From the IMG/VR virus record IMGVR_UViG_3300033998_000095, positions 1 through 64,000 of that record: a stretch of 64,000 nt of DNA. One strand, 5' to 3'. The stretch comes from a virus. Of this stretch, positions 55,917-64,000 are shown piece after piece. The position numbers were made by a program, and so were the translations under genes. Numbering within the stretch: the first letter of the stretch is position 1; every line of letters begins with the position of its first letter. The notes under the pieces were generated by a model, which was not told the DNA's origin, did not search any database, and worked only from the letters and a program-made list of their open reading frames with translations.

Positions 55917-57650
55917 TTATATTAAAGTATCTATATCAACTTTCCATAAATCCTCTGTTTCCTCTTCATCAGTTGTGACTACTTCTTGCTCTTCTTCATT
56001 AATATCTTGAGTATTAACTGAAACTTTATACTTAGCTAATTTAACTGTGCTAGGATCTTCATCGAATATGATACTAATCCTCTCTGGAATATCAAACATT
56101 CTACAAACAGTATAATCAATCCTCATTAAAAATCTTATATTGCTAGGACCATCTCTATTTTTATCTATAATACCCCAAACTTCTTTATAGTTCTTATAGT
56201 TATCTGTATTGTTTAATATATCATCCACATCTAATGTATTATAATCAATTACAGTTTCTTCAACTTTAGAGAAATCAAATAGAACTAATACATCAGCATT
56301 TTCTCTCTTCCTAATAGAGCCAGCTATTTTATCTCCTTTTATGTTTTCACCATATCCACTTCTATTTACCTGTGTAACAGTTACAACAGGGATATTAAAT
56401 TCAACACTCATGGCTTTTAAATCATCTACAATCTTTCCTAGATCTATCCATTCTTGTCCAGTCTTACTCTCTGTGGTTGCTGCCAATTTATCAGCATAAT
56501 CTATAAATACTATCTTTATTTTAGTACCATATGTGCGTTCAATATCATTTATTAATGACATAATATCAAAAGTATTAATTGATCCAGGTGATCTCCATAC
56601 TATGAATATTTCAGTACTATTTGGCTTGACAAATACCTGATCATATTTTTCTTTCACATAATTATAGTTGTTTAATCTATAAGATGATTCAAATTCATGT
56701 TTGGCTATTCCAGTGGCACAACTTACAAATCTTGCCTGTGTTTCCTCTTTACCATTTTCTAATGTTAAATACAATACACCCCATTTTTCTGATTCAGGTA
56801 TATTGTCCAACTTTCTTCTTTCATCAAGAGATATCTTAGCAGTGTAAGCTAAATTAATTAATACTAGAGATTTACCTCCACCAGAAATACCTCCCATAAT
56901 GTAAACCCTTCCATTTTCAAAGCCACCATTAAAAGCATAATCAAATACTTTGTATCTAGTGGGTATATGCTCTTTATTAAGTTCTTGGAGAATATAATCT
57001 TCAAAATTAGAAGTAGAAAGACTTAGAATATCTCCTCTTGATAATTCACTTATTTTAGTTTTGACTACAGTCTCATCTATAATCTTATTAAAGATGCTCA
57101 TATATTCATCTAAATCTTTACATGTCTTGTAATCTTTAATGATGAAATTCATTAGCACTTGATGTTGTTCAAATATATTAAATAAACATTTCCTATATGT
57201 AAATTTCTCTTCAATAAGATTAATGACATCCATGGAAAGAACATCTTGAGCTACACAATATCTGGAAAGAATTTCGTTTTGAATAGATGCTAATCTTGAA
57301 TCTGATTGGAGTATCTTTTTGAAATCCTCTAAACATATATCTCCATCTATATACTTCTTTCTACTATCTATGCATTTATCAAGGATATTGACTGTAGCTG
57401 AAGCTATATCATCAAAAGCCAAAAATTTAATATTATATTCCTTTTCCTTTGATTTAATCATATTGATAAAGGTCTTGAATTCTTTGGCCAAAAGGGAAGC
57501 TATCTCCATAACATCTTTATCTGGTTTCTTACCAAAAGCACATCTAGTATAATATGCTACAAACTCATTACCCATAAATACTTTATCTGTTTCTATTATT
57601 CTTTTCAGTTCTTGAAACAACATATCTGGTGATATATTATCAGTAATCAT
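55917..57650 (-). CDS. dnaB: replicative DNA helicase (DnaB/gp41-like)
   Basis: Walker A GISGGGKS, YLTLEN, FIDYADKL, TVTQVNR, KNRDGP. Confidence 0.9.
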   Translation of the reverse strand: MITDNISPDMLFQELKRIIETDKVFMGNEFVAYYTRCAFGKKPDKDVMEIASLLAKEFKTFINMIKSKEKEYNIKFLAFDDIASATVNILDKCIDSRKKYIDGDICLEDFKKILQSDSRLASIQNEILSRYCVAQDVLSMDVINLIEEKFTYRKCLFNIFEQHQVLMNFIIKDYKTCKDLDEYMSIFNKIIDETVVKTKISELSRGDILSLSTSNFEDYILQELNKEHIPTRYKVFDYAFNGGFENGRVYIMGGISGGGKSLVLINLAYTAKISLDERRKLDNIPESEKWGVLYLTLENGKEETQARFVSCATGIAKHEFESSYRLNNYNYVKEKYDQVFVKPNSTEIFIVWRSPGSINTFDIMSLINDIERTYGTKIKIVFIDYADKLAATTESKTGQEWIDLGKIVDDLKAMSVEFNIPVVTVTQVNRSGYGENIKGDKIAGSIRKRENADVLVLFDFSKVEETVIDYNTLDVDDILNNTDNYKNYKEVWGIIDKNRDGPSNIRFLMRIDYTVCRMFDIPERISIIFDEDPSTVKLAKYKVSVNTQDINEEEQEVVTTDEEETEDLWKVDIDTLI

Positions 57651-57683
57651 AATATAAAAATACCTCCCTTTTATTTATCTTTC

Positions 57684-58673
57684 TTACCAAGTTAAATTAT
57701 CCATATGATCAATATTAATTCCAAATATATCTATAATTGGTTCTAGTCTCTTATAAATTGCAATATCAAGCATGGCATCTATATCTGGATAAAAAATAGA
57801 GGTATCTAAATTAACTCCTTCAGGTACTGTAATAACATCAATCTGATCGTTTTTAATTAGCAAACCCTCAACACGCATTTGCTTTAATTTCTTATCATAA
57901 TCTTTGATCTTGCTACCATCTACTTTACTTATAGTAAATGTATATCCTCTATCTCCTTCATAAAAGGTAGGACCATATATGACATTGTATATTTTCATGC
58001 CTCTTATAGTCTTTGTCAATACTTTATATTCTCTAGCACCCCATCCACCAGGAACTCCTAAAGTATAATCACCAGCCATAAGTCTGGTTTTATATTCATC
58101 TATATATTTGTCTATTAGATTTAAAATTTGAAAAGAGCTGTATTCTTCTCTTAATATCTTATCTATAACATCTTGTAACATCTGTTTAGTAAACCTTGGG
58201 AAATCTGCTCTAACCACCTCCATACCAGTGATACTTAGATTATCTATTTTCTTTCCTTCTTTGTTGATGATCCATAATGCATACTTCTTCTTTGCATCTA
58301 AGAACATAGCTCTCTTAATAACTAATTCCTCTTTAAATGTAAAGTTATATTTAGTGGCAAGCTCAGAATCACCAGCATTATGCCTTTTAAGCATTTCAGG
58401 AATGATATATTTATTAATATATTCAGAACAATTTCTAACAATCTTTAAAGTGGTTTCTGTCTTTTCATCTTCACTTATTGAATCATATTTATCACCATAT
58501 AATGACTTGAGCACTGGTTCAATAAAGAGAAACATTGAGTCAGTATTATGTACTAAAATGTCATTAGCAAAAAACATATGGTTATTATCAACTTCAATAT
58601 CATATACATACTCTGGTACATTATTTTCAATTTTCTCAACAGATGCTATTCTTTCCTTTACTATAGGCATCAT
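57684..58673 (-). CDS. polB: DNA polymerase B C-terminal fragment preceded by the split C-intein (aa 1-43)
   Basis: VYDIEVDNNHMFFANDILVHN|TDSMF (intein blocks F/G, Thr+1); then FKEE, AKKKYA, GMEVVRAD. Confidence 0.93.
   Translation of the reverse strand: MMPIVKERIASVEKIENNVPEYVYDIEVDNNHMFFANDILVHNTDSMFLFIEPVLKSLYGDKYDSISEDEKTETTLKIVRNCSEYINKYIIPEMLKRHNAGDSELATKYNFTFKEELVIKRAMFLDAKKKYALWIINKEGKKIDNLSITGMEVVRADFPRFTKQMLQDVIDKILREEYSSFQILNLIDKYIDEYKTRLMAGDYTLGVPGGWGAREYKVLTKTIRGMKIYNVIYGPTFYEGDRGYTFTISKVDGSKIKDYDKKLKQMRVEGLLIKNDQIDVITVPEGVNLDTSIFYPDIDAMLDIAIYKRLEPIIDIFGINIDHMDNLTW
58545..58673 (-). other. split intein C-fragment (IntC, 43 aa)
   Basis: ends His-Asn followed by Thr of the polymerase TDS motif. 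Confidence 0.93.
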
Positions 58674-59005
58674 CTAGTACCCCCTATTCAAAATATCCAT
58701 ATATATTATTATAATGATATGGAGTAAAATCCATATCGATCATATAGCATTGCCACAGCAGAACCACCAGGCTCCCTAAATAATATATCACATCAGGAGA
58801 TATATATCTCCAAATATTTTTTAACTGTCTTTGTGGATTAAGTATAGCATAATATCTCTCACTTATCAAGCATATTAATATTAATAATCTCTTTAATGAT
58901 ATAAAAATTTACATATATATTATTATAATGAAAGAAGAAGTTTGTAGCTGTGTTTTACAGGCTTTTTCTTTCAAATATTTTTTTTACTTTTAGGGGGGTA
59001 TTATT

Positions 59006-59224
59006 ATGTTTAAGGTTGTAATTGAATCTTTATTTAATGATAGGTATGGGAAAGGTAAAAGGAAAGAATTCGTAGTATTAAGTAAAGCAGTTGCTATTCA
59101 AAAAGCAACTGCATTTAGTAAGCATTCTTGTGTAGAAGTTATCGATCACCATAAACAATGTATTGCTTATGGAGATCCAGTAGTAGGATTCAAGGAGATT
59201 GAGAGTTATGAGCACAATTTGTAA
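59006..59224 (+). CDS. hypothetical small protein
   Basis: SD GGGGGGT; overlaps the start of the next gene. Confidence 0.7.
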   Translation: MFKVVIESLFNDRYGKGKRKEFVVLSKAVAIQKATAFSKHSCVEVIDHHKQCIAYGDPVVGFKEIESYEHNL

Positions 59225-59540
59225 GATATATAAAGCAGTACTGTCAACTACAGTACTGCCAAATGATGGAATTTATCAGGTAAGAACTCTTGAAACCTTA
59301 CCTGATATCACAGGGGTGCCTCATTATATAGGACACCCTGCAACAAAAGCAATTGTAGAACAGCTTGGAGCAGTTGAAGCTTCCTCCAAGCTGTTCCAAG
59401 GATTAGATGTTGGAGAAGCAGCTGTATGCTTTGCCATCAAGCAAGGGAGAAGTACTAGAAAGGATGAAGGGTTCACAACTCCTCATCAAGAAGTTAGCAT
59501 TGATGATCTTTCTGTAAGAGAGATCATCAGATTAGAGTAA
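59208..59540 (+). CDS. DUF1874/YddF (STIV B116, AcrIII-1 ring nuclease-like) family protein
   Basis: AVLSTTVLPNDGIYQ, YIGHPATKAIVEQLG, GEAAVCFAIKQGR and terminal IIRLE align by eye with B. subtilis YddF-type proteins; SD AAGGAG favours ATG 59208. Confidence 0.7.
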   Translation: MSTICKIYKAVLSTTVLPNDGIYQVRTLETLPDITGVPHYIGHPATKAIVEQLGAVEASSKLFQGLDVGEAAVCFAIKQGRSTRKDEGFTTPHQEVSIDDLSVREIIRLE

Positions 59541-59546
59541 TAGAAA

Positions 59547-59582
59547 ATGGAAATGATCTGAGAATACTCAGGTCATTTCCAT
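59547..59582 (+). terminator. hairpin after the DUF1874 gene
   Basis: 16-bp stem atggaaatgatctgag/ctcaggtcatttccat with one G-U pair. Confidence 0.65.
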
Positions 59583-59606
59583 AAATACATAATTAAGAAT
59601 AAGGAG

Positions 59607-60116
59607 ATGATAGTGATGATATCAATGAAAAGGTTAACAAAATTATTTGTTTTATCTTTTATTATAAGCTACTTCTGTATAAATACAGGATTAGCATATG
59701 GGAATAATCTACATTTAGGAACAATTCCAAATGTAGATTATAAAATAGCTGAAAATAATGGTAATAATACTATCACCATCAATGAAAGTGGCTCATCTAA
59801 CATTGATGTAATATTAGATGAGTATGGTGATGTTTGTTTTAATATCAAAAAGATAAATCTCTATTTTACTGCAAATATATTTGCTGTATTAGATATCCTA
59901 ACACAGCTTGATGTTATTGAACCAGGTACATATAGAAATATGATTTTGGATGACAATGGAGTGACATTTGAAGTTGGTGTTAGCTCTGTGAAAAAAGATA
60001 ACGTCATGATGTGCATTAGTAATCAAGATATATCACTAATTCTAGACATTAAAACACCTAAACAGTTTCAATGTCTAGAAGATATAGAAAACAATATTCG
60101 CTCCTTATTTAAATGA
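59607..60116 (+). CDS. secreted/exported protein with signal peptide
   Basis: MKRLTKLFVLSFIISYFCINTGLA signal-like N-terminus; SD AAGGAG. Confidence 0.65.
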   Translation: MIVMISMKRLTKLFVLSFIISYFCINTGLAYGNNLHLGTIPNVDYKIAENNGNNTITINESGSSNIDVILDEYGDVCFNIKKINLYFTANIFAVLDILTQLDVIEPGTYRNMILDDNGVTFEVGVSSVKKDNVMMCISNQDISLILDIKTPKQFQCLEDIENNIRSLFK

Positions 60117-60122
60117 ATAGAT

Positions 60123-60165
60123 AAAGATATCAAGCGTGATTAAACGAATCACGCTTGATATCTTT
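60123..60165. terminator. bidirectional terminator between convergent 59607..60116 and polB-N
   Basis: 19-bp perfect stem aaagatatcaagcgtgatt/aatcacgcttgatatcttt. Confidence 0.85.
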
Positions 60166-60193
60166 TATTTAAGTAATATATTTCACTATATAT

Positions 60194-63100
60194 TTATTTT
60201 TGGTTTGTCAATACAAGATCAGAATCCAATATTTCATTTGGTTTAACTTGCATTAATTGTCCATCTCTCTCAATCATAATAGAATGGTCTTCAGTTACAA
60301 TTAATTCTTTTCCACTTTCAGTTCTAATTCTATACATTGGTTTATTAACTTTATGTCGTGATATATTATTTATTGATCTATATACAGCATCAGAATCTTC
60401 ATATGTAAGTACTTTGTCATTTGCAAAGATATATTCTCTTCCTATATAATTCATAAGTTTGTATTCCTTATGCCTTTCAAATAGATCTTTGATTGGTATA
60501 CCTTCTGGATATTGTTCAGTATTTATTTTTGTATTTTCATCAACAGAATCACCATATACTATATTCTCCAGTACATCAGCATCGAGAAATCTTGTATCAA
60601 ATTCATATGGTTCAATATCCATCTTGTGAGCATCTCTCATTTTATTTAAATACTGATGAATATGATATGCACCCATTGTTACTATTTCTCTTCCAGATGC
60701 AGTTATAGTCTCTGCAGATGGAAAATGAAACAGTCTAAAATATTGATTAGCAATTCCACCATATAGTGAGTTAGTAAGAACCTTATAAGTAAATTGCCAG
60801 TTATTATATCTTTCTGCTAACATATGATTATTATTCTCAATAGCTTTAAACATTTCATTTTTATATCGTTTACGTTCTCTAATAAGCATATCTATAATTT
60901 CATAATAAACTGACAATTTCGTGTTATGATTGACATACATTGTACCCATTATTGTTATTATCAAATTGTGTTTCGTTATAGTCTCATGCAATTTCTGTAC
61001 TGTTATCTGTTTAACATTTAAGTTCTTATCTTCATAATTAATAAGTCTATCTGGTTGAGGTAATAATTCATCTCTATTATAGATATACTCACGAGCTATA
61101 TATTCATCTACCTTACCAACATAGGTGTCAATAGAAATATTATATCGTGCAATGATATATGGATACAGAGAAGAAAGATCCAAATCAGCCAACCAGTTAT
61201 ATAATCCTTTTAATGGTTTTCTTACAAAAGCACCTTTAAGCTTTTCTGTTTCCTGATCATTATCTTTATCATATTCATATTTTTTACATATAACTGTCTT
61301 ATTTTGTTTATCCAATGTTGTAAATAGAATACCATCTATAATTGGAAGTGTGCTGAATGATTCCTCCCAACTGATGTTGGTAGCTCTTATAATGTTAAAT
61401 TGAATATCAATATATTTAAGTTTATTGTCCAACTTTCTAACAAGATGAACATCATTAATATTATAAGCAATGAATCTATTGGGATCTGATAACCACATAT
61501 CATCAAATCGTTTGTCAAGAGACAATTTCTTTATACCAAGTTCGAATTCAGCAATAAATCCAAGTGTATATGATTCTCTTTTACTGAATGTTCTTTTCTT
61601 ATACAATGTTAAATAATCACATTCCACGACATATGGAATGTATGGTTTATTAGTTCTCTCATTAATAAAAATACGACCATATTTGTTTTTACATTCTATT
61701 CCAAGATATTGTGATCTATTAATAATAATTGGCCAGTCAAATGCTGATGAGTTCCATCCTGTTACAAGATCAGGATCTATTTCATCAAATTTTTGAATAA
61801 ACCCGTTCAACATCTTTCTCTCATCATTATATACAAATATTTCAATATTACATTCGTCTTTATATTCAAGATGTTTGATTATTTCTTGTTTATCAATGTT
61901 CAAATTGAATGAGTTGTTTATAAATGTATAATAAGTATCAGTATAGTTATCATACAGGGTTATCAACGATATAGCATATCTCTTTGCAGCTGCCATCATG
62001 TCATCAAGAAGCATCATATTGCCATTGAGAAACAATTCGATATCTATAGCAGCAATTCTTAATGGTTGTTCAGTCTCAGTATAAGTATTTCTAAACTGAA
62101 TATTCTTATATACTGATAGATTCATATCTCCAAAGACATTAAACCCTTTACTCTTCAAATCATTTATTACATTTACTCTATCTTTAAACTGTATAACCTT
62201 GAGCTTTAGTTTATCCTTGTATTCAACAGTATTATTTGATTTACCATAATATAGAGCATATTTATCATCTGTAGTATGAATTATTTTATCTTGTCCTCTT
62301 CTTAATATATAATTAACTTCAGATTTAAGATAATTGTATACTGTATTGACTAACATTATATTATCTGATGTATTACTTGTGGTATCAGTATCACTCTTAT
62401 TGTCATTAACTGTTTCATATTTAGTATTGTTAGGAATAGGAAATAACTTCCTCACATCATCAGTAGTATAAGACATATGTGGTTGAACATTATCTTTTGA
62501 TTCTACAGCATATCTTATTTGTTTTAACCTATTAGCAAAAATATCGTATCTGGACATATTTCTGCATATTGCTGATGGATGAATACATGGCAATAATAGA
62601 TGATCATTATATTTATATATCTTTGTCATAGCATCAGTTATCTTATCTGTTATACCAAATCTACTACATGGATAATTACCAAGTGGAACTATAACAGCAT
62701 CAGCAGGTAATTTAGAAATGATTAACTCTAGATTGTCAAAACAATATGCTATCTCATCTTTCATTGGTGGGTTTGATGGTTGATGAAAACATAAACAAAC
62801 ATTCATAACACCCCAATGAATATCATTAAAACCAGTATTATCTAATGTTTGTCTTAATAACTGTCCTGCACGTCCAACAAAGGGTTTTCCTTCTTTAATT
62901 TCATTGACAGCTGGTGCTTCTCCAACAAATAATACTTTAACTTGAGATATATCATTTGTTGTAAAATCAAAAATAGTTCTTTGTATATCATCTTTATTAT
63001 TAGATTTGCATAATGCACATTGTGTAATGAGTCTCTTTTCTATCTCATCTTTCAATGGAGAGATAGTATCTATAGTATCTTCAACATTGCAAGAAACAAT

Positions 63101-63484
63101 AGATTCTTGATTAAGATTTTCAGTATTATTATTTTTTGTCAATGTAAGATATGTTTTAATATCTTCTTCTGATAAATAGGGATGTTGGTGTTTTAATTGA
63201 TTTATTTCATCAGTAACTTTCTTTGATTTGTTTGACATATATTGTATCTGTTTAGATCTATTAATATTTCTGTGAAATTCAGATAATTTATCAAAAGGTA
63301 CATTTCGTGCAAGTATAGGATTAGTATTAATTAACTGATCTAAGTATATACAAGATAACACATCATCTTCAGATATATTTAATATCGTAGATATATTAAG
63401 TTGTTTAACTGAATCATCCAATGAATCAGTCTTATGTTGTATATAATAAATGTATTTAGTTAGTGGTGATAACTCTTTTGCCAT
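60194..63484 (-). CDS. polB: DNA polymerase B N-terminal fragment with a family-4 UDG domain and the split N-intein (aa 980-1096)
   Basis: UDG: CxxC, VGEAP, PFVGRAG, HPS; Exo I-III: DIE, GWNSSAFD, YNINDV; Pol A DLSSLYP, Pol B KVLTNSLYG, YGD|S; intein block B LIVTEDHSI. Confidence 0.93.
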   Translation of the reverse strand: MAKELSPLTKYIYYIQHKTDSLDDSVKQLNISTILNISEDDVLSCIYLDQLINTNPILARNVPFDKLSEFHRNINRSKQIQYMSNKSKKVTDEINQLKHQHPYLSEEDIKTYLTLTKNNNTENLNQESIVSCNVEDTIDTISPLKDEIEKRLITQCALCKSNNKDDIQRTIFDFTTNDISQVKVLFVGEAPAVNEIKEGKPFVGRAGQLLRQTLDNTGFNDIHWGVMNVCLCFHQPSNPPMKDEIAYCFDNLELIISKLPADAVIVPLGNYPCSRFGITDKITDAMTKIYKYNDHLLLPCIHPSAICRNMSRYDIFANRLKQIRYAVESKDNVQPHMSYTTDDVRKLFPIPNNTKYETVNDNKSDTDTTSNTSDNIMLVNTVYNYLKSEVNYILRRGQDKIIHTTDDKYALYYGKSNNTVEYKDKLKLKVIQFKDRVNVINDLKSKGFNVFGDMNLSVYKNIQFRNTYTETEQPLRIAAIDIELFLNGNMMLLDDMMAAAKRYAISLITLYDNYTDTYYTFINNSFNLNIDKQEIIKHLEYKDECNIEIFVYNDERKMLNGFIQKFDEIDPDLVTGWNSSAFDWPIIINRSQYLGIECKNKYGRIFINERTNKPYIPYVVECDYLTLYKKRTFSKRESYTLGFIAEFELGIKKLSLDKRFDDMWLSDPNRFIAYNINDVHLVRKLDNKLKYIDIQFNIIRATNISWEESFSTLPIIDGILFTTLDKQNKTVICKKYEYDKDNDQETEKLKGAFVRKPLKGLYNWLADLDLSSLYPYIIARYNISIDTYVGKVDEYIAREYIYNRDELLPQPDRLINYEDKNLNVKQITVQKLHETITKHNLIITIMGTMYVNHNTKLSVYYEIIDMLIRERKRYKNEMFKAIENNNHMLAERYNNWQFTYKVLTNSLYGGIANQYFRLFHFPSAETITASGREIVTMGAYHIHQYLNKMRDAHKMDIEPYEFDTRFLDADVLENIVYGDSVDENTKINTEQYPEGIPIKDLFERHKEYKLMNYIGREYIFANDKVLTYEDSDAVYRSINNISRHKVNKPMYRIRTESGKELIVTEDHSIMIERDGQLMQVKPNEILDSDLVLTNQK
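60197..60547 (-). other. split intein N-fragment (IntN, 117 aa, Ser1)
   Basis: begins SVDENTKI right after YGD; TEDH block B; ends at the stop codon with no endonuclease domain. Confidence 0.93.
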
Positions 63485-63535
63485 GAATTAAAATCCCCCA
63501 TCATATAATAATCATATAGACAATGTTTTATTTAA

Positions 63536-64000
63536 CTAAACTTGGCAAGAAGTCTCCCATCTTCTACAAGTGGGAGATGAATTGCCAATTATTGTTATGA
63601 TTTATGAACTCTATATGCTTAAAACTAACTTGTTTATAAGATTTATTTGGTATAGTGATATAATTACCTTCTATATCTTGTATATATGCACCACCATTAG
63701 TAAAGCCTGTTATAAAACCAACTTTACCAAATACCTTCACTTTATCATTAAGATAAAAGCCATTTCTATATTTAGTGTTTTTACTGTTTCTTTTTTGAGT
63801 TCGATTTGGTTCTTTTCTACCTTTTCTTGGTATTGCTTCATGTAAACTACGCTTCTTTTTTCTAAATTGCTTTATTTTGAAGTAGTTGTCTGGATTATGC
63901 TTTATACTTTCTATTCCTGTTATAGCTATCGCATCATTATAATGAGTTTTTTCTAAGCCTAATTCTTTTCTTCTTATAGTTGTATAACTGCCATAGACTA
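63536..64000 (-). mobile_element. second IS200/IS605 IscB-type element (partial)
   Basis: end structure TTTAA|CTAAACTTGGCAAGAAGTCTCCCATCTTCTACAAGTGGGAGATGAATTGC parallels that of the first IscB element. Confidence 0.8.
63564..64000 (-). CDS. iscB: C-terminus of a second IscB (or IsrB) protein (not in the ORF track)
   Basis: translation VYGSYTTIRRKELGLEKTHYNDAIAI..QFRKKKRSLHE..DKVKVFGKVGFITG..WQFISHL*; RuvC-III HYNDA. Confidence 0.85.
   Translation of the reverse strand, partial: VYGSYTTIRRKELGLEKTHYNDAIAITGIESIKHNPDNYFKIKQFRKKKRSLHEAIPRKGRKEPNRTQKRNSKNTKYRNGFYLNDKVKVFGKVGFITGFTNGGAYIQDIEGNYITIPNKSYKQVSFKHIEFINHNNNWQFISHL

Follow-up and report, generated by a model that had tools for sequence, protein, structure and literature searches.

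A phage family B DNA polymerase encoded in two genes that carry the halves of a cysteine-free intein

We analysed a 64,000-nucleotide (nt) stretch of viral DNA, positions 1 to 64,000 of the 112-kb IMG/VR record IMGVR_UViG_3300033998_000095 (hereafter the window), in which a family B DNA polymerase (PolB) is encoded by two separate genes, polB-N and polB-C. The product of the first ends in the N-terminal half of an intein (IntN), and that of the second begins with the C-terminal half (IntC). We consider it probable that the two products are joined by functional trans-splicing through a class-1 intein that is split. This reading is supported by the anatomy of the locus, by homology to characterised trans-splicing inteins, by the catalytic residues, by purifying selection and by the persistence of the arrangement across diverged phages; splicing itself we infer from the conserved catalytic residues and from selection. 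The source record, estimated to be 41% complete, is most likely a jumbo-phage fragment. A megablast search of the 5.8-kb polymerase region against 50,697 phage records returned no match, indicating that it has no close cultured relative.

An earlier sequence-only reading of this DNA had reported the two open reading frames (ORFs), the site of the split, the lengths of the intein halves (117 and 43 amino acids, aa) and of the exteins (979 + 286 aa), and a gap of about 1.5 kb, all of which agree with the translations (Table 1). The polB-C start lies 1520 nt beyond the polB-N stop, and the predicted spliced polymerase would be of 1265 aa. The N-extein contains, in order, approximately 150 aa without assigned function, a family-4 uracil-DNA glycosylase (UDG) domain, a 3'-5' exonuclease, and the polymerase palm as far as VYGD. 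Besides the UDG domain, Pfam identified DNA_pol_B_exo1 (E-value 6.4e-18) and DNA_pol_B (8.6e-25) in the N-extein, with the latter match stopping at aa 979, and DNA_pol_B again in the C-extein (1.8e-7). The exonuclease and polymerase domains of a family B enzyme are thus both present, and ligation would restore its YGDTDS motif C. We found no second PolB and no PolA in the 112-kb record, in which PF00136 matched only the polB-N and polB-C pieces.

That the junction rebuilds motif C, as had been proposed, is upheld by P0012, an uninterrupted homologue that reads NVLYGDTDSIFV, with NVLYGD-TDSIFV in the motif region. In the alignment to P0012, polB-N runs to the Asp and polB-C starts at the Thr. 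The exteins therefore abut exactly in a polymerase that has no intein, so excision and ligation would restore motif C exactly. Measured against L007, the ratio of nonsynonymous to synonymous substitution rates (dN/dS) ranges over 0.03-0.17 across the N-extein; the polymerase parts of both genes have a value of 0.03, and the UDG domain one of 0.07.

The two intein halves together have the sequence features of a class-1 intein, namely Ser1, a block B/N3 T-x-x-H motif (TEDH), blocks F and G with a terminal HN, Thr+1, and significant sequence similarity to solved inteins. The translations confirmed the Ser1/Thr+1 pair, the TEDH motif, the HN/TDS boundary (the slash here and below marks the splice junction) and the lack of cysteine in either half, as first described; cysteine is absent from all 160 aa of IntN and IntC, while the N-extein has 14 and the C-extein one. 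The joined halves were aligned with seven other inteins: five come from relatives found on viral contigs, of which four are split and one is cis, and the other two from Klebsiella phage KP13-7 and from Aeromonas phage Aes516. Ser1, which directly follows YGD, is kept in all eight sequences, and conservation across the alignment extends to (K/R)H approximately 20 residues before T-E/A/S-D-H, the VYD block, and ILVHN with Thr or Ser at +1. In the window this motif reads S-R-H-K and is placed 21 residues upstream of the histidine of TEDH. An (R/K)H NX motif is the signature of Ser1 oxyester inteins (PMC10189870), and its presence, with no Cys at position 1 or +1, places the intein among the cysteine-less group. 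It is also typically split, with separate ORFs for halves of 117 and 43 aa and a break at the endonuclease-insertion loop; the cis relative L018 runs through that point without a break.

Comparison with known inteins, which the sequence-only reading had suggested as a check, gave concordant results. IntN covers positions 12-93 and IntC positions 121-155 of the 155-position Pfam Intein_splicing model, so that the two matches are complementary. In phmmer searches of the PDB, the best match to IntN was 9hth, the PolB1 intein of Aes123 (E-value 2e-12), which vindicates the naming of that phage as a precedent; PI-PkoII and TFIIB Ser1 inteins followed. IntC matched Spl DnaX (1.3e-6), gp41-1, 9hth and PolB16. 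The joined intein is 39% identical to that of Aes516.

The proposed pathway to an active enzyme is as follows. The polB-N gene would be transcribed up to a strong hairpin, and polB-C, which lies behind three opposite-strand genes, would be transcribed from its own promoter and, for translation, would use a Shine-Dalgarno sequence of its own. Once the two proteins had been made separately, IntN and IntC would come together as a HINT fold. Splicing would begin with an N-O acyl shift at Ser1, assisted by the histidines of the NX and TEDH motifs. Transesterification to Thr+1 would come next, then cyclisation of the terminal Asn, and finally an O-N shift, yielding a polymerase of the predicted length with the YGDTDS motif intact.

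Several expression signals are consistent with this pathway. The 19-bp hairpin reported after polB-N was recovered at the expected place, between the convergent stops of polB-N (60194) and of a 169-aa ORF (60116), and none of 200 shuffles was as stable (Table 1). It is likely to be a bidirectional terminator. The divergent intergenic region upstream of polB-C must hold that gene's own promoter; it contains, on the minus strand, a sigma-70-like site that is a consensus match only (58869..58841, TTGATA-17-TATACT with the TG of an extended -10), a second 19-bp hairpin at 58929-58973, and a GGGGG Shine-Dalgarno sequence 6-7 nt ahead of the polB-C ATG. Separate transcription of the two halves, judged probable at the outset, is well supported by this geometry.

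Table 1. Positions of the polymerase genes, intein halves, intervening genes and putative expression signals in the window
Feature	Position	Strand	Length	Description
polB-N	60194-63484	minus	1096 aa	ORF and translation
polB-C	57684-58673	minus	329 aa	ORF and translation
N-extein	60548..63484	minus	979 aa	Ends NIVYGD, first half of motif C
C-extein	57684..58544	minus	286 aa + stop	Starts TDSMF (Thr+1-Asp-Ser, second half of motif C), then thumb
IntN	60197..60547	minus	117 aa	Starts SVDENT; NX motif S-R-H-K; N3 motif TEDH; then stop codon
IntC	58545..58673	minus	43 aa	C2 block VYDIEVD..NHMFFAN; ends FFANDILVHN
UDG domain, family 4, N-terminal fusion to PolB	62534..62950	minus		PF03167 at aa 179-317, 7.8e-20; GEAP, PFVGRAG and HPS motifs
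Gap gene 1	59006..59224	plus	72 aa	dN/dS 0.15, dS 0.57; most diverged segment relative to L007
Gap gene 2	59199..59540	plus	113 aa	DUF1874/AcrIII-1/Crn2-like; dN/dS 0.18; GC 0.37 vs 0.28
Gap gene 3	59607..60116	plus	169 aa	Hydrophobic signal-like N-terminus; dN/dS 0.17 relative to L007
Hairpin after polB-N	60123..60165			19-bp stem, 5-nt loop; dG -29 kcal/mol, z -9.1
Divergent intergenic region	58674..59005		~330 nt	Upstream of polB-C

Viral contigs were scanned with a degenerate pattern and the matches confirmed with tblastn, which gave relatives of the locus at 32-59% protein identity. The same split junctions, YGD/S...HN/TDS, were found in L048 (59% identity, gap of 6.6 kb), in L009 (48%, 4.8 kb) and in L010-L016 (approximately 41%, gaps of 4.1-7.8 kb). 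The more distant contigs L018-L021 (approximately 32%) instead encode the polymerase in one 1591-aa ORF, whose mini-intein of 164 aa is contiguous and occupies the same site, and on three of these (L018, L020 and L021) the UDG-PolB fusion is also present. In the IntN tail of L009 (L009:1-180), block N3 reads T-E-D-E-S in place of T-E-D-H-S, which recalls the PolB16 intein, in which this histidine is dispensable.

In a wider survey, 1.84 billion protein cluster representatives were searched with polB-C and the best 150 clusters were classified. Sixteen were typical-split IntC-PolB-C proteins (5 with Thr+1 and 11 with Ser+1), 39 were fragments with a longer intein piece ahead of the junction, and 14 were long proteins with an internal junction; motif C was intact in 49, and the remaining 32 were neither (a fragment, or motif not found). 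By sequence comparison, phage PolB motif C is a crowded intein site, used in two registers two residues apart, YGD/TDS here and DTD/S in Aes123. We additionally identified a 484-kb huge phage (LR756508.1; L002, 48-7972) in which PolB lies in two genes 3 kb apart with no split intein joining them. The first gene has an intein-like insertion in motif B, and the second contains a contiguous, endonuclease-sized Ser1/Thr+1 intein, YTD/S...HN/TDS. Elsewhere in the record of the window's own phage, a weak third Intein_splicing match (G000:C1:92062-92382, plus strand, E-value 0.0045, 13 bits) lies within a 319-aa open frame and may be another intein or HINT-like domain.

Some observations weigh against trans-splicing, or against parts of the proposed pathway. 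Both Intein_splicing scores fall under the gathering cut-off, although this is expected because each half is a half-domain. Block N1 reads S-V-D-E-N-T in the window but S-V-x-G-D-S/T in all aligned relatives. Both IntN and IntC are net acidic (-4 and -5), which gives no obvious fit to the electrostatic 'capture' described for the DnaE and Aes inteins. The natural Aes123 intein is only approximately 30% efficient in vitro (PMC11923092), so the splicing efficiency of the window's intein is not to be assumed. As only some 41% of the genome is estimated to be present in the record, another polymerase may lie elsewhere. Finally, promoter-like sites were no commoner in a promoter scan than in shuffled sequence, so the case for separate transcription is made by gene orientation and the hairpin.

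The alternative that survives best, which we nevertheless regard as unlikely, is that the intein halves only dock: they would hold the polymerase fragments together non-covalently as a heterodimer, with no splicing, in the manner of the fragmented phage NrdA. The break separates the two Asp residues of motif C, where, in a family B polymerase, an unexcised 160-aa HINT domain would occupy the active site, which argues for splicing over docking. Ser1, the NX and N3 histidines, the terminal HN and Thr+1 are moreover kept here and in almost all relatives, and docking alone would not call for this full set of catalytic residues. The chemistry may be relaxed in some members, as suggested by the N3 substitution in L009, and the inefficiency of natural Aes123 points in the same direction; however, the dispensability of the same histidine in PolB16 means that the L009 variant is no proof of inactivity. 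Interaction domains derived from mobile elements that assemble a split enzyme do have a precedent (PMC3045599).

It could also be asked whether the fracture is an artefact or the gene is dead, through mis-assembly, a chimeric contig, or the decay of a polymerase into which DNA has been inserted. The window does come from a metagenome-assembled viral fragment, and GC content differs in the gap (0.37 vs 0.28). However, another metagenome yielded a contig (L007/L017) that is collinear with the window all the way from polB-N across the gap to polB-C, at approximately 95% nucleotide identity, and the same layout in an independent contig indicates that it is not an assembly artefact. A third contig (L006/L008), which ends within IntC, matches downstream, and the same fracture is found in more distant relatives and in the cultured phage KP13-7. 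Both halves are intact ORFs under strong constraint (dN/dS approximately 0.03), and the gap genes are also constrained (0.15-0.18). This explanation is thus largely refuted already, and we consider it very improbable.

Least probable of all is joining at the level of RNA, with the 1.5 kb acting as an intron or bypassed element and a contiguous cis-intein precursor being translated. Group I introns are indeed found in phage polymerase genes, and a putative intron is noted in the annotation of the Aes516 polymerase gene. In the window, however, IntN is ended by a stop codon and then a strong terminator hairpin, the gap encodes three opposite-strand genes under selection, polB-C has its own ATG and GGGGG ribosome-binding site, and in relatives the gap reaches 7.8 kb and holds many genes. 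A permissive Rfam search of positions 57000-64000 (both strands, E <= 1) found no intron or other RNA, and the intron was dropped as a candidate.

The 1520-nt gap contains three plus-strand ORFs, opposite to almost all other genes of the window, and their dN/dS values relative to L007 indicate that these are real genes (Table 1). As single sequences, none of the three had a Pfam or PHROGs match, no homing endonuclease or other nuclease family was recognised in them by either database, and the 72-aa and 169-aa ORFs returned nothing usable in the ESM Atlas. The 113-aa ORF likewise matched nothing in the PDB as a single sequence and did not reach Pfam PF08960, so it is placed solely by its family profile and predicted fold. 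It has more than 100 homologues at 50-70% identity, with those at 60-70% found in bacterial metagenomes (e.g. Parageobacillus, Desulfotomaculales). The family profile matches AFV3-109 (3.7e-7), STIV B116, SIRV1 gp29 and the AcrIII-1 structure 6scf (2j6b, 2j85, 2x4i, 6scf). An AlphaFold2 model (pLDDT 84.8) gave top Foldseek matches that all belong to the Crn2/AcrIII-1 family (probability 0.9-1.0, TM approximately 0.5). G45-H46 is invariant in a family alignment of 24 sequences, and both the fold and the Gly-His motif of the catalytic site are those of DUF1874/AcrIII-1/Crn2 proteins. Together, the profile matches, the Foldseek results and the invariant Gly-His make the 113-aa protein a candidate cyclic-oligoadenylate ring nuclease.

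Other genes occupy the gap in related phages. The gaps of L012 (5456-8112), L048 (2415-8670), L009, L010 and L011 contain ThyX and variously an SLT transglycosylase, QueT and B116-like proteins, and that of L012 adds TnpB-like (OrfB_IS605 / Cas12f TNB) and CoiA-like proteins. In the window's own genome, thyX lies approximately 40 kb away from the gap (G000 99967-100527).

We noted that the sequences flanking the gap are nearly identical between the window and L017. Positions 60198-60583, covering IntN and adjoining extein, are identical, and positions 58333-58949, covering IntC, adjoining extein and the upstream region, differ by one mismatch, with 58683-58949 identical. The cargo between these arms is 4-15% diverged, and the genomes are approximately 5% different elsewhere, with a sharp boundary at the IntN stop codon. 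Within the intein there is one synonymous difference in 160 codons, against a dS of 0.1-0.2 in the exteins. However, this degree of identity is reached by approximately 7.6% of the 600-nt windows of the 15-kb alignment, longer identical runs occur elsewhere, the third contig (L008) has four mismatches within IntC, and in comparisons at greater divergence the intein shows no higher conservation than the exteins. The near-identical arms are thus only suggestive of recombination borders flanking the cargo. An extension of this idea, which we hold to be doubtful, is that the split-intein break acts as a stable 'landing pad' at which accessory and counter-defence genes are swapped with the intein arms as recombination borders; the cargo would then include the AcrIII-1-like gene here and the ThyX, SLT, QueT, B116-like and TnpB genes of relatives.

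A 421-aa ORF with RRXRR (2.3e-66) and HNH domains lies immediately upstream of polB-N, from window positions 63564-64000 on the minus strand to G000 64829 (L087:165-1430). It is contained in a segment of approximately 1.5 kb (G000 63519-65066) that is absent from the 95%-identical L017, which has approximately 208 nt at this place. The ORF is possibly IscB-like and probably a recently inserted mobile nuclease gene. Its position is outside the gap, and it does not constitute a gap endonuclease.

The window thus holds one more case of an arrangement known from phages before, and no new kind of system. The rarity attributed to it by the sequence-only reading stands in so far as natural, fully cysteine-free split inteins are few, but its novelty was rated too high, since several cysteine-less split PolB inteins have already been characterised (PMC10189870, PMC12707363, PMC11923092) and one from a jumbo phage has been published (MIJ3, PMC6892783). 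Besides MIJ3, the published group comprises Aes123 PolB1, with its derivatives CL and CLm, CP21 PolB1, LCGC14 PolB2, GOM-OPS-1 PolB2, the atypically split PolB16 OarG and Neq Pol; the intein of the window is a further member of this known group. Particular to the window are its native freedom from cysteine, Thr+1 at YGD/TDS, the UDG-fused polymerase and the anti-defence-like cargo of the gap. The locus adds a well-documented case of the heavy use of phage PolB motif C as an intein site, and the related phages span the published gene-fracture model, from a cis mini-intein through a split with a small gap to halves that unrelated genes hold as much as 7.8 kb apart. No new question is opened and no expectation overturned. 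Efficient cysteine-free split inteins are still called scarce in the 2025 literature, with CL and CLm from Aes followed by LCGC14. As the window's intein is natively cysteine-free, typically split, Thr+1 and only 39% identical to that of Aes, it could reasonably be considered for development into an orthogonal, redox-insensitive ligation tool; cysteine-free relatives of it are present in L048 and L010.

The closest characterised counterparts are the PolB1 inteins of the T4-like Aeromonas phages Aes123 and Aes516, the parent of the engineered CL and CLm. These are likewise typically split, cysteine-less, Ser1 class-1 inteins in PolB motif C, and the KH/RH NX motif, T-x-D-H and ILVHN blocks are common to both systems. 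The Aes intein, however, sits two residues downstream (DTD/S, with Ser+1) of that of the window (YGD/TDS, with Thr+1). Its halves are encoded by adjacent overlapping genes on one strand, whereas those of the window are 1.5 kb apart with opposite-strand cargo between them, and the window's polymerase, unlike that of Aes, is UDG-fused and from a jumbo phage.

A split PolB intein has also been published for the jumbo Pseudomonas phages MIJ3 and PA5oct (PMC6892783), and phages of the PA5oct group were among the tblastn matches of polB-C. In MIJ3 an HNH homing endonuclease gene lies between the halves and the +1 residue is Ser (PMC6892783), whereas the gap of the window has no endonuclease and the +1 residue is Thr. 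The cultured jumbo Klebsiella phage KP13-7 (Alcyoneusvirus; L003, OP617745, 3200-7963) has the same junctions as the window, YGD/SV...HN/TDS, and all three of its genes were deposited as 'hypothetical protein', leaving the fracture unannotated. Its gap of approximately 1 kb contains one same-strand 337-aa ORF with a weak, sub-threshold, restriction endonuclease (REase)-like Pfam match, in contrast to the opposite-strand gap of the window. Its IntC-bearing gene encodes approximately 80 extra N-terminal residues, and its intein has three Cys.

The split intein of Nanoarchaeum equitans (Neq) Pol uses Ser1 and Thr+1. It is a natural split intein in a family B polymerase and is counted as cysteine-less (PMC10189870). 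Neq Pol belongs to a thermophilic archaeon, and its halves are encoded at distant genomic sites, whereas the window's intein is phage-borne with halves 1.5 kb apart. It was absent among the sequence matches of the intein halves, indicating that it is a more distant relative.

The window resembles the 'fractured genes' of Dassa et al. (2009) in that the break is at the endonuclease-insertion site, the halves are at the same locus and in the same orientation, and a hairpin and separate expression signals are present (PMC2677866). It falls outside their definition in one respect, as a free-standing homing endonuclease is required in the gap (PMC2677866) and none was recognised here. By analogy, the locus fits the later stages III to IV of their model, in which the endonuclease would have been lost and the halves would be becoming uncoupled (PMC2677866).

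Finally, LCGC14 PolB2, GOM-OPS-1 PolB2 and CP21 PolB1 are typically split Ser1 phage PolB inteins with an IntN of 115-120 aa and, in LCGC14, an IntC of 42 aa (PMC12707363). By their published descriptions they are 32-52% identical to Aes (PMC12707363), a distance similar to that of the window's intein. Each has one non-essential Cys in IntN and needed a Cys-to-Ser change (PMC12707363), whereas the intein of the window is natively cysteine-free.

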